Origin: Candidatus Poribacteria bacterium | GTDB lineage: Bacteria; Poribacteria; WGA-4E; WGA-3G | DNA: 64,000 bases | NCBI GenBank assembly: GCA_965214095.1 | Contig: OZ243938.1 | Coordinates: 256,001 to 320,000, forward strand | Direction: 5' to 3' | In this document: positions 4,054 to 63,106 of the stretch, one piece after another | How the letters are laid out: each line of letters opens with the position of its first letter | Position numbering within the stretch: the first letter of the stretch is position 1 | The notes under the pieces: generated by a model | Databases searched by the model: none | What the model was told of the DNA's origin: nothing | Seen by the model: the letters and a program-made list of their open reading frames with translations, nothing else | Made by a program: the position numbers and the translations under genes

Positions 4054-4148
4054 AATGTTCCTTTCTTGTTATTGTAGAGATGTATTATCTCTGCTTATTT
4101 TTTATTGACTACTATAGAAAATGTACAAACCTTCACTTATTTTGTCAA

Positions 4149-5573
4149 TCATCGGGCATTGTAATTCGGTTCAAGAGGACAGATCTTGTGGTGCTGAATG
4201 AGTGCAATCCTTGCTAAACCGTGAATTAAAAACGCCGGACACAACTGTGATTCATACCAGTCAATTCCCGATGCACCGAACGGTAGGTTCTCTTTAAAAT
4301 ATACTTCTAATGCAGTTTCAGCAAGTTTGATCCCACCTTCTAACCAGATTGACTCTTCTGTGATGTCATATAGATCAGCAAAGAGTTCAAGTGCTAACCC
4401 TATATCAGTCACTGGAATCTTAAAACCTTCACTGAGAACACGTTCAACAGGGAATTCCTCATCAAGATATGTATTACCAACTGCCTGCGCATAATCCATC
4501 AATCTGTGATCATGTGTCAACCGCCATGCACAGAGAGAAAGCACGCCACTTCCACATGAAGTTCCAGCACCATAGACGCTACCCCACGCCAACATTCTCT
4601 CAACAACCTGATTTGTTTCACATTGGCATAAACTCACAAACTCGCGAGTCTCAAGATTATGTGGAGCTGCAAGAAAACCTTCAATATAAACTCTCCCGTA
4701 TTGGCACATCTTGCTTGCTAAATTTGGAAGGTAAGATTCTAACAAGGCCGCAGATTCAATAAGACTAATTCCTAATGAAAGCGTTTGCGTTGGGGCATTT
4801 ATATTGAAAAACCTTTCATTTTCTAATGGTGAACGGCTTTCAATACACAATAAACCTTGTTCGTCTCGTTTCTCCCACCAGTATTCTGTATACTTCTGTA
4901 TCTGTTGTAGAGTTTCAGAACGTTGATTCTTGGTATACGCGAATGCTAAATCAAAGATGTAGAAGCCAGAATGTCGGGGAAAATCACATGAACGACCTCC
5001 GCGGATAAGATGTTCCTTCTTGTCAATGTTCGCATGACGTATGTATTCAAGCTCATCACCCTCTGTCCAATGATAATCCAGACCATCAGCAAAACTTTGG
5101 ACACATGAGGCGTTGAATGTGTTCAGTTTTTCCCACATCCACAATGGTACCTTGCGAAGATGATCGTGAATCGCTGAACCACCATCAGGATTGCGCGAAC
5201 ATCCTACACGTTCTTCAATCAAATGCCAAAACGAATGTTCTCCCCATGGGAATAGACCGGTCTCTGTCTGTGTGCAATTCAGTGCAAAGTACTCAAAATA
5301 TCGATCCACTGCATCCTTATATATTGATTTCGATTCAGTTTCTGAAAGGACATTCATCGTGGCAAGTAATGGTTCATCATGTATTAGATTGCATCCCAAA
5401 TGTGCACGATCACCATTTCGTTGACCTGGAATCTTTGAAGGCTTATCCAAAAGCATTCGACCTGATTTTGCATTCAGTATTGATGGGAATAGTCCATTGT
5501 ATTCAATACTGCATTCTATTATCAGATCAATTGCATTACATGTTTTAGTGATGATGACATCTGGAGTTATCAC
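4149..5573 (-). CDS. Hypothetical protein, probable (alpha/alpha) toroid glycoside hydrolase/lyase-like
   Basis: 474-aa helical ORF with GLFPWGEH and DFPRHSGFYI motifs. GTG start with GGAG RBS; lies among sugar-catabolic genes. Confidence 0.5.
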   Translation of the reverse strand: MITPDVIITKTCNAIDLIIECSIEYNGLFPSILNAKSGRMLLDKPSKIPGQRNGDRAHLGCNLIHDEPLLATMNVLSETESKSIYKDAVDRYFEYFALNCTQTETGLFPWGEHSFWHLIEERVGCSRNPDGGSAIHDHLRKVPLWMWEKLNTFNASCVQSFADGLDYHWTEGDELEYIRHANIDKKEHLIRGGRSCDFPRHSGFYIFDLAFAYTKNQRSETLQQIQKYTEYWWEKRDEQGLLCIESRSPLENERFFNINAPTQTLSLGISLIESAALLESYLPNLASKMCQYGRVYIEGFLAAPHNLETREFVSLCQCETNQVVERMLAWGSVYGAGTSCGSGVLSLCAWRLTHDHRLMDYAQAVGNTYLDEEFPVERVLSEGFKIPVTDIGLALELFADLYDITEESIWLEGGIKLAETALEVYFKENLPFGASGIDWYESQLCPAFLIHGLARIALIQHHKICPLEPNYNAR

Positions 5574-5701
5574 AAAATTCCTCCATCTATGATGATTGAA
5601 AATATGGTATCATGTATCTAATTTATGGTCAAGTTATGATTATTTTTCAATGACTTCACGCAAAACCATTTACACCCTGAATATTTGATATGGAGATAGT
5701 T

Positions 5702-6502
5702 ATGTACATTGGTCTTATGGAGGGAACGATTCGACGTGACACACTTGGAGAAACATTGGATGCTACGGTTGAATATGGAATTTACCATTTACAATACCAT
5801 ATTAACCCCGCGATATCTGTCAATGATGTACGTCAAGAAATGGATGAACGACAGTTACAGATTGTGGCACTCTCGGGGACATATAATATGATTGATCCTG
5901 ATATTCAAAAACGTGACGCTGGATTGCAAATGTTACGTTATGTCGCTTCCCAATGTGAATCCCTTGGAACATCTGTGATTACACTCTGCACTGGTTCTCG
6001 GGATCCGCATAGTATGTGGCGGGCACATCCTGATAATAACTCTGAGTCTGCTTGGCAAGACCTTGTGCAGTCCATGCAAAAGGCATTGAAAATTGCTGAA
6101 GAATTCAGTGTGACATTGGCATTTGAACCTGAGATATCTAATGTGATTGACTCCGCACAAAAGGCACGTCGTTTACTGGATGAGATGAGTTCTCCGTACC
6201 TAAAAGTTGTTATGGATGGTGCCAACATATTTCATAAAGGTGAGTTACCAAAGATGCGCGAAATTCTAGACGAAGCATTCGCATTACTTGGTGATGACAT
6301 TGCACTTGCCCATGCTAAGGACTTAGACCGAGATGGTCATGCAGGTAATCTTGCTGCAGGTACTGGTCTACTGGATTTCAATCAATATATCGGTTTGTTA
6401 AATGAAGTTGGTTATGACGGTGCTGTCGTGTTACACGGTTTGTCTGAAGAACAAGTCCCATTTTGTGTTAACTTCCTACAAGGGAAAATTGATGCGTTGT
6501 AA
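5702..6502 (+). CDS. Sugar phosphate isomerase/epimerase
   Basis: LAFEPE, VVMDGAN, LAHAKD and GYDGAVVLHG motifs. Start placed at the ATG after GGAG. Confidence 0.85.
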   Translation: MYIGLMEGTIRRDTLGETLDATVEYGIYHLQYHINPAISVNDVRQEMDERQLQIVALSGTYNMIDPDIQKRDAGLQMLRYVASQCESLGTSVITLCTGSRDPHSMWRAHPDNNSESAWQDLVQSMQKALKIAEEFSVTLAFEPEISNVIDSAQKARRLLDEMSSPYLKVVMDGANIFHKGELPKMREILDEAFALLGDDIALAHAKDLDRDGHAGNLAAGTGLLDFNQYIGLLNEVGYDGAVVLHGLSEEQVPFCVNFLQGKIDAL

Positions 6503-6516
6503 TAGGTGGACTATTA

Positions 6517-8157
6517 TTACACAGTTTCAGACATCCGTTCAGCTAACCGGGCGAGGGCAGGGGATCTGTCCAATTTCTCAAGTTCAATCTCTATTAGCGT
6601 GAAGTGTTGGGTTTCGTTTAGTGCAGTTTTCATAGCATCATCAAATTCACCCTCGGTATGAACATGAAACCCGCGGCCTGAACCAAAAAGTGATGTAATG
6701 CTGCTATAGTTCCAACATCCAATATCGTTGAATTCTCCTTCCAAGAGATGTCTTTCTGTTCCATAGCCGTGATTGTTTAGCAGAAGAACGATTGGGTTTA
6801 ATCCGTAGCGAACGACAGTTGAGAGTTCTGTGCCTGTCATTTGAAATGCACCATCTCCGACGATGACGAGTGGACGTGAATTCGGTGTGCCGAGTTGTGC
6901 GCCGACAGATGCGGGAACAGCAAATCCCATTGATGTGTAGTATGCGGGACTAAGGAAATTCGTATGTTGTTGTATTCGCAATTCAGCTGCACCGAATAGG
7001 CTATCCCCAACATCTGCTATCACAGTAATTTCATCAGTAATGAATTCGTTGAGATGTTGAAATAGACGTTCAACTGTCAATTGTGCTTTTGGATTAACTT
7101 CAAAAGGTGTTGTCTCAGTGGTTGCCCAATCTAAGTTCGGTTTTCTTCGCCGACGGAGTTTCGATGCATTGATACCATCTATAAAATCTACAAACAGGAC
7201 ATTTTCATAGGTATGGAATCCGACATTAATTTTTTCTGATGTAGCATAGATTGAACGTGAACGGTCAAGGTTTGCAGTGTATATTCCAAGGTTCACATCA
7301 GTCATGAACGCACCGAGAATGATGACACAATCTGAACTCTCAACAAACTCCCTTATCTCCTCTCTACCCATTGCTCCCTCATAAATTCCTAAGTAAAGAG
7401 GATGTGATTCTGGAATAACTGATTTACCAAGTAACGTGGCAACCACAGGTATTCGCTTTTCCTCAACGAGTTTGAGTAATTTGTCCTGAAAACCGAATCT
7501 ATGTAATTCTACGCCTGCAAGAATAACAGGATTCTTGCTCTGATTTATAAAGGTGATTGCATCTTCAATAGCAGCATTTAATGTATCAGGGTCACTTAAA
7601 TGGTTTCCGTCTGATGGACTTTTATAGTGGGTGCCACGAACATCTACCATATCTCGTGGGAGTTCAATGTATCCTGGACGTTTATAATGATAAACAGCAT
7701 CTAATACACGGTCAATCTCGTTGAATGCAGTGAAAGGATCATCAAGGAGTGCTGTTGCAACGGTAATCTCGTCAAATATTCGTTGCTGCGTATGGAAATC
7801 TCTGACTTTATGGTGAAGGAGTGCATCTTTGTCACGTTCTTTGATACCCGGTGCACCGCTAATCACAACAACAGGCGATTTTTCTGCATAAGCACCCGCG
7901 ATAGCGTTTACTGTTGATAATCCACCAACACAGTAAGTAATACAGACTGCTCCCATACCTTTTGTGCGTGCGTAGGCATCTGCTGCATAACCTGCGGCAT
8001 CTTCGCGGGTCATACCGATGTGTTGTATATCGCTTTCCTCAATGAGTTTGTAGAATCGGAGTACATAATCCCCGGGAATGCCGAAGATGTGTTTTATGTC
8101 GTAACTTTTGAGTTTCTTGAGTAGGTATTCACCAATGGATGTTGGGATGTTACGCAT
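6517..8157 (-). CDS. ThDP-dependent alpha-keto acid decarboxylase (indolepyruvate/pyruvate decarboxylase family)
   Basis: FGIPGDY, AGYAADAYAR, LLHH and the GDGAFQMTG...NNHGYGTER ThDP-binding motif. Confidence 0.92.
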   Translation of the reverse strand: MRNIPTSIGEYLLKKLKSYDIKHIFGIPGDYVLRFYKLIEESDIQHIGMTREDAAGYAADAYARTKGMGAVCITYCVGGLSTVNAIAGAYAEKSPVVVISGAPGIKERDKDALLHHKVRDFHTQQRIFDEITVATALLDDPFTAFNEIDRVLDAVYHYKRPGYIELPRDMVDVRGTHYKSPSDGNHLSDPDTLNAAIEDAITFINQSKNPVILAGVELHRFGFQDKLLKLVEEKRIPVVATLLGKSVIPESHPLYLGIYEGAMGREEIREFVESSDCVIILGAFMTDVNLGIYTANLDRSRSIYATSEKINVGFHTYENVLFVDFIDGINASKLRRRRKPNLDWATTETTPFEVNPKAQLTVERLFQHLNEFITDEITVIADVGDSLFGAAELRIQQHTNFLSPAYYTSMGFAVPASVGAQLGTPNSRPLVIVGDGAFQMTGTELSTVVRYGLNPIVLLLNNHGYGTERHLLEGEFNDIGCWNYSSITSLFGSGRGFHVHTEGEFDDAMKTALNETQHFTLIEIELEKLDRSPALARLAERMSETV

Positions 8158-8233
8158 GGTGGCACCTCGTTTTAACGAGGAAAAAGTTGATAGTTAAGCA
8201 CATCAATGTTCTCAAAGTTAGTTTCTGGTTACA

Positions 8234-8683
8234 TCAAAACTGTTTATCACTATCTAATAGAATAGTAACAGGTCCGTCATTTATGAGTTGAACATCCATC
8301 ATGGCTTGGAAAGTGCCACCTACTGTTGGAATGTTCAACTCTTTTAGTAGAGAGATAAACTGTTCATATAAAGCATTGGCAACTTCAGGTCGTGCAGCAC
8401 CAATAAAACTTGGCCGTCTCCCCTTCCGACAATCTCCATAGAGTGTGAATTGAGATACGACCAGTGCTGAACCACCTGTATCAAGCAAGGAAAGGTTCAT
8501 TTTGCCATCTGAATCTTCAAAAATACGCAAATTAGCAACTTTGTTGGCAATATATTGTAATTCAGTTTCAGTGTCGTTATGGGCAACGCCGAGGAATATC
8601 AGCAATCCTGTACCGATTTCCGACACAAGTTCGCCATCAACCTTCACACTTGCAGATTTGACGCGCTGGATAACTGCTCTCAT
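8234..8683 (-). CDS. dtd: D-aminoacyl-tRNA deacylase
   Basis: [13 protein letters not shown] and NDGPVT signature motifs. Confidence 0.97.
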
Positions 8684-8733
8684 ATTAGATTGTTGTTAGT
8701 AAAAGCAAAGAAAGCAATCATAGACTCTACGAT

Positions 8734-9675
8734 CTAAAATAACAACTGAGTGCCTTCCATTTCCTTAGATCTTTCGCCACCAAGTGTGAGATTAAACTGG
8801 AAACCGGGATTGTTGTTTATTCCAATCTGAAATGCTAATGTACTGGAAACTTCATAACGGAATGCCAGACCCATCACGTTTGACACACTCACCCCAGAAT
8901 ATAATAGTTCACGAGAGTAATCTGCTGCAAACCACATATTATCTGCGATAGAGATTTCACCACCGCCGAAATAACTAAAATTAAATGAGTCTGACGTGCG
9001 GACAGATTTTGATGAAAGGAGTACTCCCGCCCCACCGTGTAATTTAATAGCTGCACCAACTCTCTGCGTGCCTACAAAATAAGTGTTTATACCGGCAAAT
9101 GGATATCCGTCAATTGGATCAGGATCAAGAAATTCGTCATTAGAATTAAGGCGATCATCAGCAGTATAACCGGAAAAGAATTCTGCACCAATAGAGATAC
9201 TTGGTAAACCATCATTTTTTTCAGGTTTGAGATTATATTTGAGTCCAATTAATCCTTCATTTAAGGGTTGGTCATATACACGGGCTGGATTGACATCTGC
9301 ATCAGCCGTATCGTAAAAATCATCAACCACTTTGTGGACATTTCCTACAGAGAGCGTAGCACCAAGATGAAGGTCAACTTGATTACTCAATCCATAAGTG
9401 AACCGGACAGGAATGAAGAAAGTTTCTATTTCAAGTGAAGCGTGTGTCTGTCGTTCAAATCCACCGATAAAGACAGTCTGTGTCTCTTCAGGTTCTAATG
9501 TCTGTTTTGAATACTGAAACAACCCGAAAGTTGTCATTGAACCACCTTTACCTAACGGTTCAGCGGTTTGTATGCTTGTCAGTTGTGAAACGGGTGGGGT
9601 TTGGGCATAGATTACTGTATTTAATGCAGTGAATAGAAATAATGCTAAAGTTGCAATTCGTTTTATATAGAACAT
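8734..9675 (-). CDS. Secreted protein, probable outer-membrane beta-barrel
   Basis: Signal peptide, then alternating amphipathic beta-strands (FTYGLS, GLKYNL, AFRYEV, FQFNLTLG). Confidence 0.55.
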   Translation of the reverse strand: MFYIKRIATLALFLFTALNTVIYAQTPPVSQLTSIQTAEPLGKGGSMTTFGLFQYSKQTLEPEETQTVFIGGFERQTHASLEIETFFIPVRFTYGLSNQVDLHLGATLSVGNVHKVVDDFYDTADADVNPARVYDQPLNEGLIGLKYNLKPEKNDGLPSISIGAEFFSGYTADDRLNSNDEFLDPDPIDGYPFAGINTYFVGTQRVGAAIKLHGGAGVLLSSKSVRTSDSFNFSYFGGGEISIADNMWFAADYSRELLYSGVSVSNVMGLAFRYEVSSTLAFQIGINNNPGFQFNLTLGGERSKEMEGTQLLF

Positions 9676-9710
9676 AATAATTCCTTTAATCTTATCTCAA
9701 ATTTTGTTTA

Positions 9711-10868
9711 TCAATATATTGCTTGTGCTTCCACTAAAATACTTTCGTCTCGTTCACCTTCAAGTGTTGGCGTGTCATCGAATGCAGAGATGAAGTAGAC
9801 TCTTAAGAAGAATTCACCGCCGATAACAATTGGGTCTTCACCAGAAAGTGTAACACTTGTTTCACCCGGTTTCAACAGTCGCCGTGGCACGTAATTTTCA
9901 TCTTTATCTATGGAATATATCTGATATCCCACGAGGTCATTCTCTTTGTTGTTGTCATCCCATGTCATTAACACATCATATTTATTATTAAATAATGATC
10001 GACCAAAATAACTTGCTCGAAAATTTTCTGGAGGTGCAGGAGGCAGATTCGGTGAAGTAGCAGTAATTTCTGTAATTCCTTCAACACCAAATTCATCCAC
10101 TGCAGCTATACGGTAAACTTTGGTAATATTATCGTGACGAAAACTTCCATCAACATAGAAGCTTTGTTCTCGTGTGAGTTCAATTGCTTCTCTAAATTTT
10201 AATGGAACATCAACACCTTCATAAAATGCTATATATATTCGAAATGAATCAAAATCGTTAGGAAAAGGATAGTTTTCCCAAAATAGATTGACTCTGAGAT
10301 CAGCAGGTTCTCCGAGTGTTACAACTGGCTGTGGTGGGGCTATGCTTGGCGTTACAATTACTGTCGGCCATACACGAATTGGGTCTGCAGATACGTCTGG
10401 TGGATTTTCTGGATTTGGTGTTTCAACGTCATTTATATCAACATAGGAAATTCTATATTCATAAGCTACATTTGTTCCATCTGCAGCTTTACGATCATTT
10501 TCTATATTTTGGTTATCCACAAATTCACTTTCTGTTGCATCCACAGTACCGATTAACTCAAAAGGTTCATCTGATTTGTTATCTGTACGACGGTAGATTT
10601 TGTACGATTTTACACCTTCAGATTCTATCTTATTCCAAGTTATTCGCACCTCTCTGTCACCTGGAAATAACGTCAATCCATCAGGTGATCCAGAGGTCCG
10701 CAAGTTTTCTGAGTCCAGTGGATTGGCATAATCCTCAGTATTTGTGCATGCCCCTATCATCGTTATTATTAAGAACAAAGGTAATAGGAACAGGATTGTT
10801 TTTATTTGATATGAAAAATTAGATTGAGTTCTATTTAAACAACACAATGAAAACATTTTTTCCTCCAC
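9711..10868 (-). CDS. Lipoprotein with fibronectin type III-like domains
   Basis: Lipobox IGAC followed by NPLD. Three FN3-like units (VRITW...YKIYRR, LFWE...YRIAAVD, MTWD...GYQIY). Confidence 0.7.
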   Translation of the reverse strand: MEEKMFSLCCLNRTQSNFSYQIKTILFLLPLFLIITMIGACTNTEDYANPLDSENLRTSGSPDGLTLFPGDREVRITWNKIESEGVKSYKIYRRTDNKSDEPFELIGTVDATESEFVDNQNIENDRKAADGTNVAYEYRISYVDINDVETPNPENPPDVSADPIRVWPTVIVTPSIAPPQPVVTLGEPADLRVNLFWENYPFPNDFDSFRIYIAFYEGVDVPLKFREAIELTREQSFYVDGSFRHDNITKVYRIAAVDEFGVEGITEITATSPNLPPAPPENFRASYFGRSLFNNKYDVLMTWDDNNKENDLVGYQIYSIDKDENYVPRRLLKPGETSVTLSGEDPIVIGGEFFLRVYFISAFDDTPTLEGERDESILVEAQAIY

Positions 10869-10887
10869 AGATTATTTGTCTTGTGAA

Positions 10888-11424
10888 TCAGAAACGGTAC
10901 AAAAATTGTAGGCTTGCGCGTTGTGTTTGAAAATCGTAATTCGGTTGAACACTAAATAACTGTGACCTACCGTAAATCTGATTATTTGTTGTTCTGGGTG
11001 AAGATGATATGTTCAATGGATATTGATTATTCAGGAATGCATTTCCTGGATTGTCCGATGTTGAAGCAGTATCAACTGTAGCATTATGAAATTGGTTCAT
11101 AATGGAAAATAAAACAGCAAATCCAATACAACCATACCCAACACGAGACATGATTGTCGTTGCATTTTCTCTGAGAACTGTTTCATCTTTTAGGCTTTGT
11201 ATATCAGCTTGCGTTGTAGCAGAAAGATATTCTTCATATTTGTTTTCTGCAGAAGTGTTCAAAAATGTACTACCAACCTGAAAACCTATACCAGATATTA
11301 GGAGTGTTATCGCAAGTCCATTTGATCGTTTCTTTGCGTGAACTGGTGATATTGTTAAACAAAGTAAAACAATACACAATATTCCAATTATTAAACGGTT
11401 CGGTTTCAAACCCAAATGTATCAT
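10888..11424 (-). CDS. Hypothetical membrane protein
   Basis: Signal peptide, two hydrophobic helices and a C-terminal beta hairpin ending in YRF. Confidence 0.65.
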   Translation of the reverse strand: MIHLGLKPNRLIIGILCIVLLCLTISPVHAKKRSNGLAITLLISGIGFQVGSTFLNTSAENKYEEYLSATTQADIQSLKDETVLRENATTIMSRVGYGCIGFAVLFSIMNQFHNATVDTASTSDNPGNAFLNNQYPLNISSSPRTTNNQIYGRSQLFSVQPNYDFQTQRASLQFLYRF

Positions 11425-11470
11425 TATTCTGTATATTCCTTTCAGATGTGTTTGATATAATTAATAGTTA

Positions 11471-11499
11471 AGTGTATCTGATTATTTTTTGAAAGTCAA
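11471..11499 (-). promoter_or_regulatory. sigma70-type promoter for the 11424-8234 gene run
   Basis: TTGACT-17 bp-TACACT on the minus strand. Confidence 0.5.
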
Positions 11500-11608
11500 T
11501 GTAAAATGAAATGAAGGGAGAATTCTTCAATCGTTCAAATTCAATATTTCCTGTTTAGGTAAGAAGTTAGTGCCAAGAACTTTACACACCATCCAGAACA
11601 ACTTCAAT

Positions 11609-11637
11609 TTGACAAATTGACTATAAAGTGTTAAAAT
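11609..11637 (+). promoter_or_regulatory. sigma70-type promoter upstream of the GGGP synthase gene
   Basis: TTGACA-17 bp-TAAAAT with an extended -10 TG. Confidence 0.65.
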
Positions 11638-11748
11638 TGTTTAGTTTTGTTAGCAACATAGCGTGTTTGCAGACTAATGCCAATGATAGATGAAATTAAT
11701 ATATCGAACTCACGTTAATAAATATGTTAATATAAGGAATACAGACAT

Positions 11749-12495
11749 TTGACATCAGAAAGTGTTCTGCAATACCTCCACGGGGTAATACAAAAAAAGA
11801 AGGCTGGTTATCTGGTTCTCATTGATCCCGATGTATATGAGATTGAGAGATGTGCTAATCTTGCTTGTGAGATTGAACGAGCTGGTGCTGATGCGATCTT
11901 ACTTGGTGGTAGTCTTTTGACCAATGACCTTCGTCCGATTGCAGAACACTTGAAAGCATCCACAACTCTACCTATAATCCTGTTCCCTGGTGATTCTATG
12001 CATCTGACACCTTATGCAGATGCCATTCTTTATATGAGCTTAATTAGTGGTCGAAACCCAAATTATCTTATTGGTGAACAGGTCAAAGCTGCTCCGTGGA
12101 TACAACAGTATAATCTGGAGCCAATTCCAACAGGTTATATGTTGATTGATGGTGGTAATAGAACTACAGTTGAATTTATGAGTGGCACTGTACCAATCCC
12201 GCGTAATAAACCAGATATTGCTGGTACACACGCTTTGGCAGCACAATACCTTGGAATGAAAATGGTCTACTTAGAAGCGGGAAGTGGTGCTGAACTTCCT
12301 GTGCCTGACGACTTAATTGCAAAGGTTCATGCCCAAATTAATATACCACTGATAGTTGGTGGCGGTATCCGATCCCCCCAAATGGCTTCTCAGAAAGTTA
12401 ATGCTGGTGCAGATTTCATTGTCACTGGTAATATCCTTGAAGAAAATCACTCCTATCATTTTATGAAACAATTTGCCGATGCAATACACGGATGA
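11749..12495 (+). CDS. Geranylgeranylglyceryl/heptaprenylglyceryl phosphate synthase, group II type
   Basis: LIDPD, LLGGS, ILFPG, MSLISGRNPNYLIG, YLEAGSGA, IVGGGIR and IVTGN motifs. TTG start with AAGGAA RBS. Confidence 0.92.
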   Translation: MTSESVLQYLHGVIQKKKAGYLVLIDPDVYEIERCANLACEIERAGADAILLGGSLLTNDLRPIAEHLKASTTLPIILFPGDSMHLTPYADAILYMSLISGRNPNYLIGEQVKAAPWIQQYNLEPIPTGYMLIDGGNRTTVEFMSGTVPIPRNKPDIAGTHALAAQYLGMKMVYLEAGSGAELPVPDDLIAKVHAQINIPLIVGGGIRSPQMASQKVNAGADFIVTGNILEENHSYHFMKQFADAIHG

Positions 12496-12571
12496 ACTTG
12501 ACACGAGATATTCTCAAAATTCAGTACTCAGTATTATATTGATAATAATAACGAAAGAGAGGTAATTCATC

Positions 12572-13303
12572 ATGTCTGAAAATAATGAAAATGAGGTAGT
12601 TATAGAAATAGAAACGGAAGAAAACGATAAACCGGATTTTCTAATTGATGAATCAAAAGAAGAAACAGAAACATCTAATGAAACAGAAGAACGCACAATA
12701 GAAACTGTTGAAGCAGAACTTGAAGCACTTAAGGAAGATTTTAAAAATAAACTGGAAGCAGTCGCAGAAATAGAACGTGAGCAGTATCAAGCTGAACGGG
12801 AACGTTTACTTCGTACTGCCGCTGAAGCAGAAAATTCAAAAAAACGTATAGAAATAGATGCTCAGAAGCAGCTAAAATATGCCAATAAGACCCTTGTTGA
12901 AGGTTTGATTCCAGTATTAGATAGTATTGAAGCAGCGATAAAGAGCCTATCGGATAAAAAAGATGAAAGCGAGACATCTACAGATGTTACACACTTCAGT
13001 GATGGAGTCCAGTTAGTTCAGAAACAACTGTTAGATGTGTTGAAAACAAATGGACTCACTACAATAGAAGCAGTTGGTGGACCTTTTGATCCTAATCAAC
13101 ATGAAGCGGTATTTGCAACTGAATCAGATGATGTCCCGGAAGGAGAGGTAATTGAGGAATTTAGATGTGGCTACCAATTACACGATCAGATTCTTCGTGC
13201 TGCACAAGTAATTGTTTCAAAAGGTAGACCTAAAGAAGAAGCTGAAACTGAAGACACTGAAACACAACAAGAGGATAACACTACCAAGAATAGTGATGAG
13301 TAA
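12572..13303 (+). CDS. grpE: Nucleotide exchange factor GrpE
   Basis: Acidic N-terminus; LRTAAEAENSKKR, LIPVLDS, FDPNQHEAV and GYQLHDQILRAAQVIVS motifs. Confidence 0.95.
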   Translation: MSENNENEVVIEIETEENDKPDFLIDESKEETETSNETEERTIETVEAELEALKEDFKNKLEAVAEIEREQYQAERERLLRTAAEAENSKKRIEIDAQKQLKYANKTLVEGLIPVLDSIEAAIKSLSDKKDESETSTDVTHFSDGVQLVQKQLLDVLKTNGLTTIEAVGGPFDPNQHEAVFATESDDVPEGEVIEEFRCGYQLHDQILRAAQVIVSKGRPKEEAETEDTETQQEDNTTKNSDE

Positions 13304-13326
13304 TCTCAATTTAGGTAGAAAATGCT

Positions 13327-14433
13327 ATGATGCAAAAGCGGGATTATTACGATATACTAGATGTGAGCAGAGATGCTAACGAGGACGAAATAAAGAAAGC
13401 ATATCGAAAGTTAGCAATCAAGTATCATCCTGATAAAAATCCGGATGACAAAGAAGCAGAAGCAAAGTTTATTGAAGCAGCCGAAGCTTACGATGTCTTG
13501 TTGACTCCAGAAAAACGTCAACGTTATGATCAATATGGTCATGCTGGTTTAGAAGGTATGTCATCAGGACATGGTGTAGGGATAAATATAGACGAAATAA
13601 TTAATGATGTGTTTGGTGAGATGTTTGGTGGATTTCGTAGAAGTAGAACCAGACAAGGTCGAAGTCTGCAAACAAATCTTGAGATTACACTTGAAGATGC
13701 CTATAGTGGAAAAGAAGTGGCAATTGAAGTTCCACGAGTAGAATCATGTCCTGATTGTGATGGAAGTGGTGCGGAAAAAGGTTCAACTGTTGATACTTGT
13801 CCGCAGTGCTATGGACGTGGACAAGTGACGCAATCACAAGGATTCTTTACGCTGCAACGCACTTGCCATCGTTGTCATGGTAGTGGTGAAGTGATACAGA
13901 AACCGTGTAGAAATTGTAATGGACAAGGACGCGTTAGAGTTAAACGTGAGATTAAACTAAAAATTGACAAGGGTGTAGATACCGGTTTTGAGTATCGTCT
14001 ACAGGGACAAGGAGAAGTAGGAGCATCGGGAGGTGTTCCCGGAGACCTCCTTGTTGTCCTTCATGTTGCCCCACACGATAGATTTAAACGGAGTGGGAAT
14101 GATCTAATTACTTCAACAAAAGTTTCGTTTGTACAGGCAGCACTTGGATGTACTATTGAGGTTAATGGTATTGATGGATCACACCAATTGGTTATTCCGG
14201 CGGGAACACAATATGGAGACCAATTGCGTATACAAGGCAAAGGGATGCCAAAATATCGTAGTTCCAGTTTTGGTGACCTTGTGGTACATGTGGGTATTGA
14301 AACACCGAGGAATATTACTGATGAACAACGTAAACTATTAGAGAACTTTGATGAACTGCATGAAGGCACATCAGATTCTAGCAATGGTGGATTTTGGGAT
14401 AAACTGTTTAGCCTAATAGATGATAAAGATTGA
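13327..14433 (+). CDS. dnaJ: Chaperone DnaJ
   Basis: J-domain with HPD and four CxxCxGxG zinc-finger repeats. Confidence 0.97.
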
Positions 14434-57250: not shown

Positions 57251-58417
57251 TTATATTTCTGTCCTTAAAATCTCTGCTGCATTTTGTATCACTTGAAGTT
57301 TCTGAGTCGCGATGTCCGTAGTATTTACTGGGCGATCTGCAAATGTGCCAAATCCACAATCTGGATTCAGATAAACCTGTTCTGGTTTCCGATGTTTTAA
57401 GAGTGCTCTTACTTTGTTCAACACAAAATCTACAGATTCCACCTCTATGGTACGCGGATCAACGACTCCCAGTCCAATCTCTTTGTCTTCAGGAAGTTCA
57501 CTCAGAACATCTATACTACCTGCTCGTTCTGTAGCATATTCTAACACAAACTGATTAATGTTCATCTTGCTAAAATATGGAATTAGTAGATCATAAGAAC
57601 CACGGAGTAAGACATCTTCCTGTTGACTCCAGTTTCCTCTACAAACGTGTAGGGCAGTTTTCATTTGTCCATCTATACCTTCAACGACACGATTGATTAG
57701 TTCTACAGCAAAGTTCAGTTCTTCTTCTGGACTGCTTTTCTCTGATAAGGCAGCACACATGAACGAATGTGTTTCATGTGGACCAGTAAATGCAACTTCG
57801 GTAAGGACTGGTTCATCAAATTGCACAAATTCACAACCTGCATTCTGTAAATCTTGTAATTCTTGTTGAAGTACATCAACAACATCGTTACCAAGGGACT
57901 CTTTGTCAGGATAGAATTCGTAGGAGAGTTTCTTCACCCACATTGATCTGGTTAATAGGTAGGGACCTGGGAGGGTGACCTTGATCGGTTTATTGGTATG
58001 TTCCTTAAGGAAAAGGAAATCGCTTAGGACAAGTGGTGATGTCCGTTTTAGTTTTCCATCAACCACTGGGTTTTTTAAGGCAAAGGCAGGAACATCTAAT
58101 GCATTCAGCAATTGTTCAAAAGCAGCTTTGTCTTCAACATAGTCAAGCATTTCAGCAAGTGTCATCAATCGAATGCCGTCAATGCATTCAGTGATGAAAG
58201 AATAGAAGTTATCGCGGCGTTGTTCTCCATCGCTGACGATATCTACACCGTTGTCTTCTTGCAGTTTTAGGCTTTCAATCACTGCATTGTCTGCAATTTC
58301 AGTGAATTCGTTGTCTGTGATGTTCCCTTTATTTCTGTTCCGTATCGCCCGTGATACCGTCCTTGAACGAGGCATGCTGCCAACGACGGTTACCGGAAAC
58401 TGTGGTAAATTGTCCAT
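57251..58417 (-). CDS. Cobalamin-independent methionine synthase II family (single-barrel core MetE-like) Zn enzyme
   Basis: VVGSMPR, SDGEQRR and QFDEP motifs; Zn ligands HVCRGNW, LEY and NPDCGF; extra HSFMCAALS loop. Start MDNLP after AAGGAG. Confidence 0.9.
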   Translation of the reverse strand: MDNLPQFPVTVVGSMPRSRTVSRAIRNRNKGNITDNEFTEIADNAVIESLKLQEDNGVDIVSDGEQRRDNFYSFITECIDGIRLMTLAEMLDYVEDKAAFEQLLNALDVPAFALKNPVVDGKLKRTSPLVLSDFLFLKEHTNKPIKVTLPGPYLLTRSMWVKKLSYEFYPDKESLGNDVVDVLQQELQDLQNAGCEFVQFDEPVLTEVAFTGPHETHSFMCAALSEKSSPEEELNFAVELINRVVEGIDGQMKTALHVCRGNWSQQEDVLLRGSYDLLIPYFSKMNINQFVLEYATERAGSIDVLSELPEDKEIGLGVVDPRTIEVESVDFVLNKVRALLKHRKPEQVYLNPDCGFGTFADRPVNTTDIATQKLQVIQNAAEILRTEI

Positions 58418-58491
58418 TGTTCGTATCTCCTTCACTTTCATTTAATGTGTTATGTTTGCAAACGCCAAAGCTTCTGCAATTGCTTATCTGG

Positions 58492-58704
58492 TTATTCTAC
58501 TAACTCTCTTTCAAATATAACGATCACTTGATCTGACCGACCACTAAATGTCGGAAGGATGATTTCACAAAGTCTCCATCCTTCTTTTCCTTCAGTATTA
58601 AGTGTACTCTCCAAGTCTGGTACATCTCGGTCCGGAGTTCCGAGCAATCCTTTTGCGTTAATCGAAACATCAAGCTTTACCGTTTTATACTCGTATTTCT
58701 TCAT
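58492..58704 (-). CDS. DUF4177 family small protein
   Basis: KYEYKTV...LNTEGKEGWRL...IFER. Confidence 0.85.
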   Translation of the reverse strand: MKKYEYKTVKLDVSINAKGLLGTPDRDVPDLESTLNTEGKEGWRLCEIILPTFSGRSDQVIVIFERELVE

Positions 58705-58726
58705 TACTATGCCTCACTATGCCTCG

Positions 58727-59206
58727 TTAAGACACTGTTACATAAGGACGCGTGTCAATGTAATAGACCAGATGTCCTTCGTTTTCTCTGAAACCAATTG
58801 AGCGAAAAAAGGACTCTTCACAATTTTCAACGATGTAGCCCGTGATGAAGGTTGCGCCCATTTTTTCAAGTTCATGACATAAACGTTCACCTAACAGAAG
58901 TCCTAATCTACTATTATCTGATTCAATCAACGATCCGTTGTTGTATTTCAGATTATCTCCTTGATAGTGGACATCAACTGAAAATTCCATGATGTGTGCG
59001 GAAAGACCGTCAAAAGTAGCGCGTGCAAGTCCGACAAGTTGATTTTCTATGTATGCAGCTACGATTAGGTGTGGGTGTTCCAGAATCCGTGCTGCGACTT
59101 CTTTGCCGAACCCGACCTCGCAAATATTGTTTCGTTCATAGAAGTTGAATAACGCATCAGCAGTGATGATAGGGTTGACTTGGATGTTTATGGGTTGTGG
59201 TGTCAT
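58727..59206 (-). CDS. GNAT-like protein
   Basis: LVGLARATFDGLSAHIMEFSVDVHYQG and FFRSIGF motifs. Confidence 0.7.
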   Translation of the reverse strand: MTPQPINIQVNPIITADALFNFYERNNICEVGFGKEVAARILEHPHLIVAAYIENQLVGLARATFDGLSAHIMEFSVDVHYQGDNLKYNNGSLIESDNSRLGLLLGERLCHELEKMGATFITGYIVENCEESFFRSIGFRENEGHLVYYIDTRPYVTVS

Positions 59207-59256
59207 GGTTTACTTCGCTCACTGATGGTATGAGGTCTTTGTATCACAATTCTTGG

Positions 59257-60237
59257 TTAGACATCATCTTCCTGTTCGCTGGAATTGAGTGAAAGCAATA
59301 CACTCTCAATTTCTGGTTGGAATACCTCTATTAGTTTTAAAAGGTTCGTGATATGCCATTCTCTAATTTCCTTTAATTCATCTTCAGTGGCTTCAATTGA
59401 TTCATCACGAGAAACGATTATGAATGTCTCTTGCTTGTCAGCATTACGTTGCCATTCAAGGTTGCTTCCAAACCTCCTAATAATTTCTTCCTCACGATCC
59501 TTTAGTACATCAAAAAGTGGGATTCGCTTCTCACATTGTCCTTGATAGATTCTTAAATCTACCCTTGCTTTGTCACCTTGGGCAAATGAAACTCTGTATG
59601 CAATGCCCGAAGTTCCTGAGGCAACAGTACGTCGGTTTTCTCCTGTATTACTTCTAAAATTCTTGGTAAAATTATACTTATCTCTTAATTCATCAATAAG
59701 TTCTTGAAAGAAGATCCTATACTTTTCTTGCTTAGGTGATACATCTGTTAGACGTTTCTGTTTCTGATACTTTTGCCATTCATTCGGAAAAACAACTAAC
59801 TTAAAAACAGGGGTAAGTTTTGACTTGTCAATTTGTAGAAGTTCCACCACGACAGCAAAGAACTGAGTCTCAGTATCCGTTCTCTGATTTAACCATTCTA
59901 AAGCTTGGCGATGTTCATCCCTAATTTTTTCTGAAACCCATACCACTACTGACGCATCATTGCCACCTGCGTATGTAAGCAGTTTTCCCAGATGTTCATG
60001 GTTGGATCGCTTAAACTGGTTTTCAATCACAACAGTTCTTGGAGTCCCTTCAACTTGAGCTAACAGATCCAGAAAGAAATCCCCAACTGGTGCTTCTCTG
60101 TCTACGACCTCAAGATCCATTCCAAGTGCATCACCTAATTTATCAATATGTTCTGCAAGCCACGGTGTAAAATCATTTTCTTCGTGTTTAAATACTTTGT
60201 GTAACGGAATTGTCTTTAATTCTCCAAAGTCATACAT
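59257..60237 (-). CDS. DUF4268-domain protein with N-terminal PD-(D/E)XK-like nuclease domain
   Basis: HEENDFTPWLAE, LDLLA...VVIENQ, HLGKLLTY and EHRQALEWLN motifs; C-terminal FGSNLEW. Confidence 0.8.
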   Translation of the reverse strand: MYDFGELKTIPLHKVFKHEENDFTPWLAEHIDKLGDALGMDLEVVDREAPVGDFFLDLLAQVEGTPRTVVIENQFKRSNHEHLGKLLTYAGGNDASVVVWVSEKIRDEHRQALEWLNQRTDTETQFFAVVVELLQIDKSKLTPVFKLVVFPNEWQKYQKQKRLTDVSPKQEKYRIFFQELIDELRDKYNFTKNFRSNTGENRRTVASGTSGIAYRVSFAQGDKARVDLRIYQGQCEKRIPLFDVLKDREEEIIRRFGSNLEWQRNADKQETFIIVSRDESIEATEDELKEIREWHITNLLKLIEVFQPEIESVLLSLNSSEQEDDV

Positions 60238-60454
60238 TTTTCAGGACTCCTTCCATTTTTTTCACACGACCAGCCTTAATATCAGTACGCACTTTTTCAG
60301 CAAGTTGAGCGAGTTGGTCTTGCGATTCTGCAAAAGACTTTTCCCACCGCCGTTCATCTTCAAGCTCTTCAAAAATGATGGTTGCAATGGCATCTTGCTG
60401 TTCGGGAGGCAATTTATATACCTCAGTAAGCACTTTTTCAAGTAGCTGTGTCAT
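60230..60454 (-). CDS. Small putative antitoxin-like protein
   Basis: MTQLLEK...LPPEQQDAIA...ELEDERRWEKSFAESQDQL...AGR. RBS AAGGAGG; overlaps the next gene (ATGTATGA). Confidence 0.65.
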   Translation of the reverse strand: MTQLLEKVLTEVYKLPPEQQDAIATIIFEELEDERRWEKSFAESQDQLAQLAEKVRTDIKAGRVKKMEGVLKNV

Positions 60455-60480
60455 AATTGTTCCTCCTTAGTTTTACTAAC

Positions 60481-61221
60481 TTATATCACTCGCAAGTCCA
60501 CATTTATATCAACATCACGCGTCAAAGTATTCGTCACAGGAGAAGCAGTGATGGTTTCCTGCCAAAGTTTTTCTAACACTTCATCATCAGCATCCGATGC
60601 TACGTATATCGTTCCGCTGACCTCTTTAAACCCGCTATGTCCGTCCTGCTCTGTTCCAAGAAAAACAAAGATGTTATCTATCTGACCACTTAGTGATATT
60701 TCTAGCTCATCTATCTGAATTTTCTGTTGTGAAGCACGAATTTGAAAACCCATCGCTAAACAAGCACCGAGTGCACCAAGAACATATTCTACTGCACTGG
60801 GTGCCTCATCACGTACATCAAAACTTGCAGGCTGTCCAACCGACCATGAGTGATTTCTACAGAATACCTTTGCCTGAAGACCACCATCCCAATGGATACG
60901 CGTCTTCCACTGATAATCTCGTGCTTGTTCGTAGGCAATATCTGCATCCTGTTCGGCTTCACCGCGTTGTACGAAATATTTGTTATGCTCAGGATCAGAT
61001 CGCCAACCGAGATATGGGTTTTCTGTCATCCGACACCAGGCTGGCAGATCCTCTTTGACACTGATTTCTGTACTACGTATTTCCAAGACTTCTCCATCAG
61101 GAACTTTTTCCATAGATTTACGAATGAGCAAGAGTAAACCAGAACCACAGTCAAGGTTTCCACCTTCACATATATGTGATGTTTGTAAAGAATCAGGGGC
61201 ATTTAAATCTTCTTCTCGCAT
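60481..61221 (-). CDS. TusA/SirA-like sulfur carrier fused to an OsmC-like domain
   Basis: N-terminal GGNLDCGSGLL...DLPAWCR. C-terminal PSAVEYVLGALGACL...SGF...ASPVTNTL, where the second OsmC Cys is replaced by Ser. Confidence 0.85.
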   Translation of the reverse strand: MREEDLNAPDSLQTSHICEGGNLDCGSGLLLLIRKSMEKVPDGEVLEIRSTEISVKEDLPAWCRMTENPYLGWRSDPEHNKYFVQRGEAEQDADIAYEQARDYQWKTRIHWDGGLQAKVFCRNHSWSVGQPASFDVRDEAPSAVEYVLGALGACLAMGFQIRASQQKIQIDELEISLSGQIDNIFVFLGTEQDGHSGFKEVSGTIYVASDADDEVLEKLWQETITASPVTNTLTRDVDINVDLRVI

Positions 61222-61547
61222 ATATTTCCTTTGTGAAAGATAGATTCTGTCTTAACTTTATCTATAGAAAGTATTTGCAAATCTGTTTTATCGTTTGTCT
61301 GTTTTGTATTATATGTTTTATTTTGAAGGTGGGCAAGGGTGTTGTGGGTTTATTGAGAAGAATATTAGTGGTCTTAATAATGAAACCCTCCCTATGTATT
61401 CGTTTACTCTAAGTGAGAAATATCAAATGATCTTTTGGTAAACAACCATATTTACATTGGGAGGGAGACATGTTTGTCAGAATTGGGATTCAACCGAACC
61501 CAATAGGCTATTACTGCAACAGACTGCAGGAACACCTTAACCCAATG

Positions 61548-61907
61548 TCAATAGGTAATGCAAGATGCACCAGTAGTTAAGAACTCAACAGCCTTTGCAC
61601 CACCAACTATCAATGCACTTTCAACAAGGTTATTTTCATCCAGACTTCGTTTCTTGAAGCATGGAGAACATACCCAAATTGTTCCACCCACCTCAACAAA
61701 ATCAGACATTAATTGTTTTAGTGGTGCAAAACTTTCTTCATGAATATCATCAGCGTAACCACTCTGTGATAGATGTACACCTTCAGTGCTAAGAAATATG
61801 ACTGTTTCAACACCGGATGCAACCGAAGCATTCGCAACAACAAAACCGACAGTGGCTTTGTCGGTATTATCTTTTGCATGCGTAATGCTTATCATTAACT
61901 TCGCCAT
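61548..61907 (-). CDS. DsrE family protein
   Basis: IFLSTEGV, IWVCSPCFKKR and IVGGAKAVEF motifs. Confidence 0.88.
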   Translation of the reverse strand: MAKLMISITHAKDNTDKATVGFVVANASVASGVETVIFLSTEGVHLSQSGYADDIHEESFAPLKQLMSDFVEVGGTIWVCSPCFKKRSLDENNLVESALIVGGAKAVEFLTTGASCITY

Positions 61908-61912
61908 TATGT

Positions 61913-62206
61913 TTATACTCCTTTTTTAATATAAAAATAGGCATTGTCTTCTCCGCAGCAATCTGCAAGAAGTTCATTGCCTATCATGTTACACCATGCC
62001 GCGATGTCTACAGGGGCACCTGGATCCAAAGCGCGGACTTGTGCTATCTGCCCTTGCTCAAGAGTTCTCATGGATTTTAATAGTGCTATAATAAGGTCAC
62101 CACATCCGAGTTCTCCTAAATCAAAAACAGCATCTGGTTTTATGTCTGGTAAAACTACTTTTTCTCCCATATAAAATAAAATACCATATAATTTTTCAGA
62201 TGTCAA
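61913..62206 (-). CDS. TusA/SirA-like sulfur carrier protein
   Basis: FDLGELGCGDL...VRALDPGAPVDIAAWC...YFYIKK. The true start may be ATG 62170. Confidence 0.85.
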   Translation of the reverse strand: MTSEKLYGILFYMGEKVVLPDIKPDAVFDLGELGCGDLIIALLKSMRTLEQGQIAQVRALDPGAPVDIAAWCNMIGNELLADCCGEDNAYFYIKKGV

Positions 62207-62236: not shown

Positions 62237-63106
62237 TTAACGTTCAAGCCATCCCGGTAATTTTATGTTTTCCGACATTTTCCATGCAGTTAGATAGAGA
62301 GATGCTGTCCAACGCACACCCTCTCGTGAGCGGTCATTCGTAAACTCAATTAATTCTGTGGAAGGTTTTTTGAGTGCCTCATATTGTTCAACAAGTTCAT
62401 ATACATTATCTACCAAGTTAAAGCCTTCTTTTAACTGCTTGACAATTGCTGGAAATAAGTCACCAACCATCTCTACTTTTTGATCCTTGGCAAGTTCAGA
62501 TGGATCAAGTTTTAATACCTCAATTGATGAATCTACTTTCTCATGGATTCCACTATGCAGTTTTGAACCGTCCTTTTGAACAATACCATCAAAATGTACA
62601 GTCAAGTGTAGAGGTTGGCACATGTCTTGTGCATAGTGACCGAGAAATCCCGCATATACATAACATTTGTATTGTATTATCGGATTATCAGGCCATTTGC
62701 GATATTCTGCAAAAGCGATAGCCAGTCGTTCTGTCCATTCCGCTACTGCATAGGGTAGGTAACCAACTTTGCCTGGATCCTGATTCAACTCTGCACACAA
62801 TTTGATGAATGCATCACGATTAACTGGTACAGGATTATCTTTGATGAGTTCCAGATCAAAGTAATGTTCACCGTGTTCTGCTATCCGAGCATGTGCCATA
62901 TCACGATTCTTAGACACATCAGGATCATAAGCACAATGTGTGATCATACTTTCACCTGATGCTGACCTGAAAAATTCAGGTAATTCGTCAGGTAACGCTT
63001 TAATAGAGGCTTGTGTGAGGATGTCATGTCCACCACCCCACCATGCAAAAGTGGGAGAAGAAAGCACGAACACCGATAGAACCAATACTTGTAATATACG
63101 TTTCAT
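62237..63106 (-). CDS. Secreted Zn-dependent phospholipase C / S1-P1 nuclease family protein
   Basis: Signal peptide then WWGGGH; DPD, HYFD, HYAQDMCQPLH and IHEKVD motifs. Confidence 0.82.
   Translation of the reverse strand: MKRILQVLVLSVFVLSSPTFAWWGGGHDILTQASIKALPDELPEFFRSASGESMITHCAYDPDVSKNRDMAHARIAEHGEHYFDLELIKDNPVPVNRDAFIKLCAELNQDPGKVGYLPYAVAEWTERLAIAFAEYRKWPDNPIIQYKCYVYAGFLGHYAQDMCQPLHLTVHFDGIVQKDGSKLHSGIHEKVDSSIEVLKLDPSELAKDQKVEMVGDLFPAIVKQLKEGFNLVDNVYELVEQYEALKKPSTELIEFTNDRSREGVRWTASLYLTAWKMSENIKLPGWLER

Follow-up and report, generated by a model that had tools for sequence, protein, structure and literature searches.

Why would genes for sulfur-carrier-like proteins stand beside the gene for a zinc enzyme of the methionine synthase fold? 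The question is raised by a locus in a 64,000-nucleotide stretch of DNA from a Candidatus Poribacteria bacterium (assembly GCA_965214095.1, contig OZ243938.1, positions 256,001 to 320,000), which we analysed as a whole and refer to as the window. From upstream to downstream, its minus strand carries genes for a small TusA-like carrier (61913-62170, about 85 residues from M13; the open reading frame (ORF) is open to 62206), a 119-residue DsrE-family protein (61548-61907), a TusA–OsmC fusion (60481-61221) and a MetE-like single-barrel Zn-type enzyme (57251-58417, 388 residues from M9; ORF open to 58441; Meth_synt_2, E value 1e-34). Translation probably begins at M9 in the MetE-like ORF and at M13 in the TusA ORF, because relatives have stops upstream of both and the MetE-like homologues are 388 residues long; residue numbers given here for the MetE-like enzyme are those of the 396-residue ORF (57251-58441). 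A preliminary description of the locus had reported four co-oriented minus-strand genes. Strand and coordinates stand, but the genes are not contiguous, with four unrelated ORFs interposed. The motifs that it quoted (LGCGDL, VCSPC, LDCGSG, HSFMCAALS, AWC twice, and HVC, LEY and DCG) are all present in the translations.

We surveyed genomes with the TusA–OsmC protein as query, taking one genome per species, and mapped the window proteins onto the resulting 78 loci. A full TusA–OsmC protein was encoded at 69 of the 78, and 67 of these were assessable; at 51 of the 67 the fetched flank contained the MetE-like gene, downstream and in the same orientation. Outside Poribacteria it was downstream at 19 of 20 loci and directly adjacent at 16 of the 20. 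The order TusA, DsrE, TusA–OsmC, MetE-like is kept there in at least ten named lineages, namely Brocadia, Nitrospinales, Chthonomonadales, Abditibacteriales, Methylomirabilota, Alpha- and Gammaproteobacteria, Nitrosomonadales, Thermoleophilaceae and one delta-proteobacterial clade. At non-poribacterial loci with this order the MetE-like enzymes are 50-76% and the DsrE proteins 50-80% identical to the window copies; identity of DsrE across phyla is 49-80%. In some poribacterial species (L021, L023, L033, L043 and L046) exactly these four genes are turned round in place while the genes on either side stay as they are, which shows that the block acts as a unit.

An independent survey of metagenomes used a DsrE alignment and yielded 484 relatives, and we examined the best 80 of these 484 loci, 73 of which had room downstream. 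TusA lay upstream of DsrE in 67 of 70 assessable loci. TusA–OsmC followed by the MetE-like gene (type I) accounted for 34 of the 73, with the MetE-like gene found in all 28 assessable type I loci, and TusA fused to the MetE-like enzyme (type II) for 32; one locus had a TusA–DUF455 fusion and six had other arrangements. The linkage of the four genes is far beyond chance. The preliminary description had named conserved linkage of this MetE subfamily with TusA, DsrE and OsmC genes in other genomes as the test of its proposal, and that linkage holds in at least ten lineages and in fusions.

In Bdellovibrio and one Planctomycetota genome the third gene encodes TusA fused to the MetE-like barrel, without OsmC, in a protein of approximately 500-526 residues, an architecture confirmed by Pfam at L076, L077 and L079. 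Longer proteins sharing the TusA part gave 598 matches; the best 120 of the 598 comprised 107 TusA–MetE-like and 13 TusA–DUF455 fusions, with no other fusion partner among these 120. One fused TusA–MetE-like form is that of a Telmatospirillum strain, a named culture, so cultured entry points exist. In a third architecture, which occurs in Chloroflexia and was seen at L072-L075 and L097, TusA and DsrE are followed by a 435-residue TusA–DUF455 fusion, with no MetE-like gene in the flank. The DUF455 domain is ferritin-like and weakly matches R2-like ligand-binding oxidase (R2lox); literature searches on DUF455 returned nothing relevant among the matches listed. An AlphaFold2 model of the fused TusA–MetE-like form reached a predicted template-modelling score (pTM) of 0.75, with both cysteine loops and the linker at low confidence, so that it carries no docking information. 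A complex prediction of the MetE-like enzyme with TusA–OsmC and Zn scored 0.01, which speaks neither for nor against binding.

The AlphaFold2 model of the MetE-like enzyme itself has a mean predicted local distance difference test (pLDDT) value of 86.5 and a pTM of 0.89, with low pLDDT in the loop 220-236. It matches the C-terminal barrels of MetE with TM-scores of about 0.72-0.76 at around 20% identity, and also superposes on the single-barrel structures 3rpd and 1ypx, the closest solved chains at about 21-22% identity. The Meth_synt_1 match covers residues 169-215 only and the two-barrel MetE model TIGR01371 gives 105 bits against a cut-off of 930; judged by its sequence matches, its model and its length (388 residues, against about 750 for two-barrel MetE), the enzyme is a single barrel without the folate-binding half. 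The best methionine-synthase equivalog, PRK04326, scores 218.8 against a cut-off of 406, and all NCBIfam equivalogs fall far under their cut-offs. By model scores the enzyme is outside all curated NCBIfam methionine-synthase families, and the ESM Atlas offers only generic 'B12-independent methionine synthase' clusters.

Consistent with the earlier claim that the Zn ligands (HxC, E, C) are kept, H265, C267, E301 and C362 are shared without exception by 25 sequences that represent many phyla, and they align with the ligands of other family members. S22, E73 and D209 are likewise invariant in the 25 sequences, and the segments GS22, DGE73 and D209EP correspond in the alignment to IGS, HGE and IDEP of Thermotoga maritima MetE (1t7l), whose Ser, Glu and Asp we take to anchor homocysteine by its amino and carboxylate groups. 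After the DEP strand a loop is inserted with an invariant F-M-C229 (FMCAAL), C229 being present in all 25 sequences. In the wider superfamily 4346 representative clusters match at E ≤ 1e-3 and 184 at E ≤ 1e-30. Of the representatives aligned, those with the FMC loop all belong to the module-linked subfamily, fused forms included; neither the next relatives (50% and 36% identity) nor any of the more distant single-barrel proteins aligned has it. What had been noted as an 'extra Cys loop' turns out to define the subfamily, and in one clade its cysteine codon is replaced by TGA. Separately, the genome from which the window comes encodes a second, distant single-barrel Meth_synt_2 paralogue (G000:C1:3856630-3857139; L002, L087), a 364-residue frame that is 29% identical over residues 212-367.

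At L080 a TGA codon stands at the position of C229, and reading through it gives a product 50% identical to the window protein. In a sample of the class to which L080 belongs, the MetE-like gene was found in 16 of 201 genomes, with exactly one in-frame TGA in 16 of 16; the TGA aligned with C229 in all ten fetched loci of this clade, where TusA, DsrE and TusA–OsmC lie upstream. The TGA-bearing loci are L080 and L170-L179, with G057, G264 and G275 among their genomes, and SelD is present in G057, the genome of L080. As a candidate SECIS element, a hairpin, CACCCGC-N6-G(C/T)GGGTG, is conserved about 14 nucleotides after the TGA, its folding energy being no better than that of shuffled sequences (z -0.41). 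Residue 229 is probably selenocysteine in this clade, and the TGA form is a candidate new selenoprotein family, which gene callers will truncate. Where cysteine and selenocysteine alternate at one site, the residue usually acts in catalysis, as a redox centre or a nucleophile. The available main text of a 2026 review of prokaryotic selenoproteins (PMC13188914) contains no methionine synthase, MetE or homocysteine, and the module thus points to a selenoprotein family not found in that catalogue.

The carriers show a distinct residue pattern of their own. Across the PF01206 domains compared, every TusA copy has C-G-[DES], not CPxP, with the cysteine retained. The small TusA carries a second cysteine in an AWC motif, and the TusA domain of the fusion has cysteines at C25 (LDCGSG), C63 (AWC) and C18; translations and alignments both bear out the earlier observation of CG for CPxP and a second AWC in the two domains. 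Orthologues elsewhere exceed the PF01206 cut-off of 28.6 bits (46.9, 42.9 and 41.2, for example), and the window copies score 28.1 (small carrier) and 26.8 (fusion). The DsrE protein belongs to PF02635 (48.5 bits, cut-off 22.7) and has an invariant C80-S-P-C83, a CxxC motif. The OsmC half of the fusion matches the OsmC/Ohr profile PF02566 (56.3 bits, cut-off 27.5) and lacks the pair of peroxidatic and resolving cysteines. It had been described as having only one cysteine; the window protein has two, C120 and C154, but only C154 is conserved, and the resolving cysteine is replaced. At what we presume, from the arrangement in OsmC/Ohr proteins, to be the resolving position, 22 of 22 sequences have S227-P228, and the nearest solved OsmC relative, 2opl, likewise has SPV there. 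The best NCBIfam match of this half is OsmC_like_Se. The YedF model TIGR03527 had no match at E ≤ 0.01 to the window proteins.

The genome of the window encodes a full MetH (1719 bits). All 37 genomes of the same genus carry the MetE-like gene, as do 4 of the 57 from the sister genus and 52 of the 151 in a sample of the phylum. Among 47 Brocadiaceae genomes the MetE-like query found matches in 9, of which 7 are full length, and the module was found in 1 of 151 Bdellovibrionales. Because MetH is present in the same genome and the genes are patchily distributed among genera, the module is accessory, not housekeeping. MetH or MetE occurs alongside it in G000 (the genome of the window), G002, G004 and G005. 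The complete genome of Brocadia pituitae encodes no Meth_synt_2 protein other than the MetE-like enzyme and no full MetH, which would favour a role as the sole methionine synthase. We rejected this argument because relatives without the module lack MetH, MetE and Meth_synt_2 proteins too: a full MetH was found in 0 of 47 Brocadiaceae, and 39 of the 47 have no Meth_synt_2 protein at all. As a side observation on these genomes (G001, G006-G051), no Cys_Met_Meta_PP enzyme reaches E ≤ 1e-30 in 30 of 47, and most have a B12-binding-domain protein of about 242 residues and a pterin-binding protein of about 270 residues; the MetH, Meth_synt_2 and Cys_Met_Meta_PP families do not account for methionine synthesis in anammox bacteria.

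Linkage of the genes, fusion of TusA to the enzyme, the pattern of residues and an accessory distribution are directly established. Because gene order is conserved, TusA is fused to the enzyme and the loop carries a cysteine or a TGA codon, we infer with good support that a cysteine-based relay feeds the Zn enzyme or is fed by it. Organosulfur assimilation and a non-folate methionine route, the functions offered in the preliminary description, are conceivable outlets for it. Our tentative proposal, which we rate at somewhat less than an even chance, is that the four genes work together as an accessory module, spread horizontally, in which the carriers pass a persulfide to the loop cysteine of the Zn enzyme. 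In this model, two small cysteine carriers (one TusA-like, one DsrE-like with CxxC) and a TusA-like domain would serve the single-barrel enzyme, which has gained C229 on a mobile loop next to its active site, and sulfane sulfur, or selenium, would move along them as a persulfide to C229 and there exchange with a Zn-bound homocysteine-type substrate. The direction that we prefer, at low confidence, is C–S bond formation, in which the Zn-activated persulfide would attack an activated four-carbon amino acid and the thiol product would be freed by thiol–disulfide exchange with the carriers. Zn-thiolate alkylation in protein farnesyltransferase and in epoxyalkane:CoM transferase (EaCoMT) may offer an analogy. 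The transferred atom, the substrate and the direction of the reaction are what we infer here. A more specific version, in which the Zn site and the loop Cys/Sec take a persulfide or perselenide from the fused TusA and build or dismantle a homocysteine-type thiol or selenol without pyridoxal 5'-phosphate (PLP), folate or B12, seems to us somewhat unlikely. The occurrence of an OsmC-like, Prx-like or di-iron-like partner in all three architectures suggests that an oxidant may take part, a feature for which none of the readings considered here gives a good account.

Several points weigh against the persulfide relay. Its chemistry is an extrapolation on which no solved relative bears, and the intact homocysteine-type pocket would suit plain methionine synthesis just as well. 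We know of no precedent in the MetE fold for PLP-free C–S bond formation on activated homoserine. The relay gives no account of the frequent PhnD-like ABC transporter near the module, nor of the OsmC-like domain, the Prx5-type redoxin at L136 and L138 and the di-iron-like DUF455, which hint at an oxidant co-substrate. In addition, PF01053 proteins, which we had considered as a possible complement to the module in Brocadiaceae, show no complementary distribution (present in 1 of 7 module genomes versus 16 of 40 others), and that idea was rejected.

The pocket raises the alternative that the enzyme is a fifth folate- and B12-independent methionine synthase for which the cysteine proteins act as MesX does for MesD, either supplying or regenerating the methyl donor or keeping C229 and the oxidation-prone Zn-thiolate site reduced. 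Such a role would agree with the intact Zn ligands and homocysteine-type binders, with best NCBIfam matches that are methionine-synthase models, and with several neighbours: cystathionine gamma-synthase-like genes directly downstream at L064, L067, L069 and L118, an O-acetylhomoserine sulfhydrylase gene 3 kb downstream at L058, and the position of the L058 module within a T-box ilvB–ilvN ... ilvC array. MesD, too, requires a dedicated and uncharacterised partner, as well as oxygen, according to the available part of Price 2021 (PMC7857596). However, the equivalog models score far below their cut-offs, MetH or MetE coexists with the module in the four genomes named above, and an Rfam search found no S-adenosylmethionine (SAM), B12 or other riboswitch family by the module in the window or at nine loci. 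Cysteine thiols and persulfides are not known as methyl donors, and a catalytic Cys/Sec, or replacement of the enzyme by DUF455, would be unexpected for a methyl transferase. Taken together with the failure of the Brocadia argument, we consider a methionine synthase unlikely.

Slightly less probable in our view is selenium trafficking, in which the CxxC and CG carriers would hold selenium as Cys-S-Se, in the manner of a split YedF, and pass it to SelD or detoxify it; the source would be selenite, selenate or an organoselenium amino acid, and the MetE-like enzyme would handle a selenol amino acid. At L070 the module is directly followed by SelD (336 bits, cut-off 125) and a TIGR04553 'putative selenate ABC transporter' substrate-binding protein (326 bits, cut-off 250), PhnD-family ABC transporters recur by the module, and the OsmC half matches OsmC_like_Se best. 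YedF, a TusA-like plus DsrE-like protein with CGXC, is linked to selenium in the available part of Lin 2015 (PMC5322559), and the consulted portion of PMC13188914 catalogues DsrE-like UxxC and OsmC-like selenoproteins. Yet SelD is adjacent to the module in 0 of 80 metagenome loci, and the YedF model finds no match at the threshold given above. SelD is present in the genome of the window and in 11 of 15 other module genomes, against a background of 57 of 151 Bdellovibrionales and 2 of 14 control genomes; it was not seen in four module genomes, G002, G003, G052 and G053, which are metagenome-assembled, so that its absence from them is not shown. Its presence does not discriminate, as SelD also occurs in 143 of 151 genomes of the phylum, in 55 of 57 of the sister genus, which mostly lacks the module, and in 37 of 47 Brocadiaceae. 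With SelD non-discriminating in Poribacteria and Brocadiaceae and the module too rare in Bdellovibrionales (1 of 151), we rejected co-occurrence with SelD as evidence. Selenocysteine in the enzyme, moreover, means that the host uses selenocysteine, not that the enzyme handles selenium. Least expected, and in our judgement very unlikely, is a thiol-peroxide or reactive-sulfur stress module in which the partner (OsmC-like, Prx-like or di-iron) would react with an oxidant, and the carriers and loop cysteine would then resolve homocysteine-type thiols present as sulfenic acids, persulfides or mixed disulfides. Oxidant-reactive partner types do appear in all three architectures (OsmC; Prx5-type at L136 and L138; DUF455, R2lox-like), and TlpA-like and TauE genes lie near some loci. 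Against this, a redoxin neighbours the module in only 2 of 12 annotated loci, the TlpA-like and transglutaminase-like neighbours, which have export signals, may have nothing to do with the module, the resolving cysteine of OsmC is missing, and a stress function assigns no role to the Zn alkyl-transfer fold.

Several characterised systems resemble the module. Like MesD/MesX, it has a single MetE-type barrel without the folate half, Zn and homocysteine residues, one or more co-encoded non-corrinoid partner proteins, and an accessory relation to MetH. Unlike MesD/MesX, its partners are the cysteine carriers TusA, DsrE and OsmC, not DUF1852; by equivalog models, as opposed to labelled MesA-D sequences, its enzyme appears to belong to a different sequence family; and the enzyme has the extra Cys/Sec loop and is also found in anaerobes such as Brocadia. 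Neither a corrinoid partner nor MesX (DUF1852) was found among the neighbours in the window or at about 40 annotated loci, and the module thus has neither the corrinoid protein of methanogenesis or the Wood–Ljungdahl pathway nor the MesX that partner MesA-D. A search of the genome of the window for MesX gave no match, though the control query matched nowhere either. The MetE C-terminal barrel (T. maritima 1t7l/1xpg, E. coli type) shares the fold, the Zn ligands and the Ser/Glu/Asp set, whereas the module enzyme is about 20% identical to it, lacks the N-terminal barrel and has the FMC loop inserted after the DEP strand. A catalytic cysteine on a mobile loop, a TusA partner and a DsrE-family member recall the relay of IscS, TusA and Tus/DsrEFH, although the enzyme here would be a Zn TIM barrel, not a PLP enzyme, the TusA motif is CG, not CPxP, and, unlike the DsrEFH/TusBCD hetero-oligomer, the module DsrE is a single gene with CxxC. 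YedF (TIGR03527) also combines TusA-like and DsrE-like domains with CxxC in the DsrE part; in the module the domains are split over two genes, the TusA motif differs and the hidden Markov model gives no match at E ≤ 0.01. EaCoMT, also a Zn enzyme of the MetE family, uses a non-methyl electrophile to alkylate a thiol. Compared by description only, it differs in that its substrate is coenzyme M, not an amino acid, and the module enzyme retains the amino-acid binders.

Full-text literature searches, which largely covered sources other than subscription journals and supplements, returned no description of the module, in keeping with the earlier statement that no characterised pathway has this gene set, and the four-gene module appears to be undescribed. 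To our knowledge the methyl source of MesD/MesX is still unknown, and partner-dependent single-barrel relatives of MetE are a recent and poorly understood class. The available sections of Price 2021 (PMC7857596) contain no passage tying core synthases to sulfur carriers. The module would add to this class a widespread member with cysteine-carrier partners and an extra active-site Cys/Sec, and TusA- and DsrE-type carriers would gain a new kind of client enzyme. Were the persulfide or perselenide chemistry true, it would represent a new route of sulfur or selenium assimilation, with chemistry undescribed for the MetE fold and an enzyme that is a new selenoprotein family, spread over more than ten phyla by our count. 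Were the selenium reading true, it would bear on the safe intracellular delivery of selenium.

The flanks of the module are mostly unrelated, and some genes recur in them. In 11 type II loci the gene for a PhnD-family substrate-binding protein is found 1.6-1.8 kb upstream of TusA; the gap between PhnD and TusA contains an ATPase gene at L135, L136 and L138, the three that were annotated, and also a permease gene at L136. PhnD-like ABC transporter genes are found inside the module at L053 and downstream of it at L070. Just upstream of the PhnD-like transporter in two type II loci lies a gene of the O6-methylguanine-DNA methyltransferase type (L136, 2917-3570; L138, 3569-4105), a protein type that acts as a cysteine alkyl acceptor. 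EgtB-like sulfoxide-synthase genes adjoin the type I loci L053, L094, L101, L106, L107 and L111, and transglutaminase-like genes occur at L059, L060, L092, L094, L107 and L147. Prx5-type or TlpA-like redoxins are encoded at L094, L107, L136 and L138, with the Prx5-type gene downstream of type II modules at the last two. At L058 (Chthonomonadaceae, 4071-14181) the array runs T-box-led ilvB, ilvN, the module, genes for a HAD hydrolase and a methyltransferase, ilvC and the O-acetylhomoserine sulfhydrylase gene. The T-box was considered as a regulator of the module and rejected, since it leads ilvB and not the module.

In the window, TusA–OsmC is split from the MetE-like gene by a lineage-specific insert of about 2 kb (58492-60454, minus strand) with four ORFs: DUF4177 (58492-58704), a 159-residue ORF (58727-59206), DUF4268 (59257-60237) and a 74-residue ORF (60230-60454). 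Its content differs among Poribacteria and it is absent from other phyla; the insert is outside the conserved module. The same gap is an insertion hot spot at the matching place in the poribacterial loci L003-L046, where copies or fragments of the 74-residue ORF, DUF4268, the 159-residue ORF and DUF4177 differ by species, with two copies of the 74-residue ORF at some loci.

The 326-bp spacer between DsrE and TusA–OsmC (61222-61547, minus strand) contains a three-helix element, conserved in sequence in Poribacteria (the same spacer is found at L003, L005, L007, L016, L024, L028, L033 and L065), and a promoter-like site at 61336-61308 (minus strand). The element consists of two hairpins directly 3' of the DsrE stop and a long-range helix between CTCCCTCCC and GGGAGGG; changes on both sides were seen in 5 of 26 predicted pairs, and an Rfam search of the spacer gave no match at E ≤ 5. 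Upstream of TusA, a 289-residue ORF (62237-63106) matches no Pfam family, and its start resembles a signal peptide. It adjoins DUF362 and the module in Poribacteria whichever way the module is oriented, a position that fits plain synteny around an inverted block.

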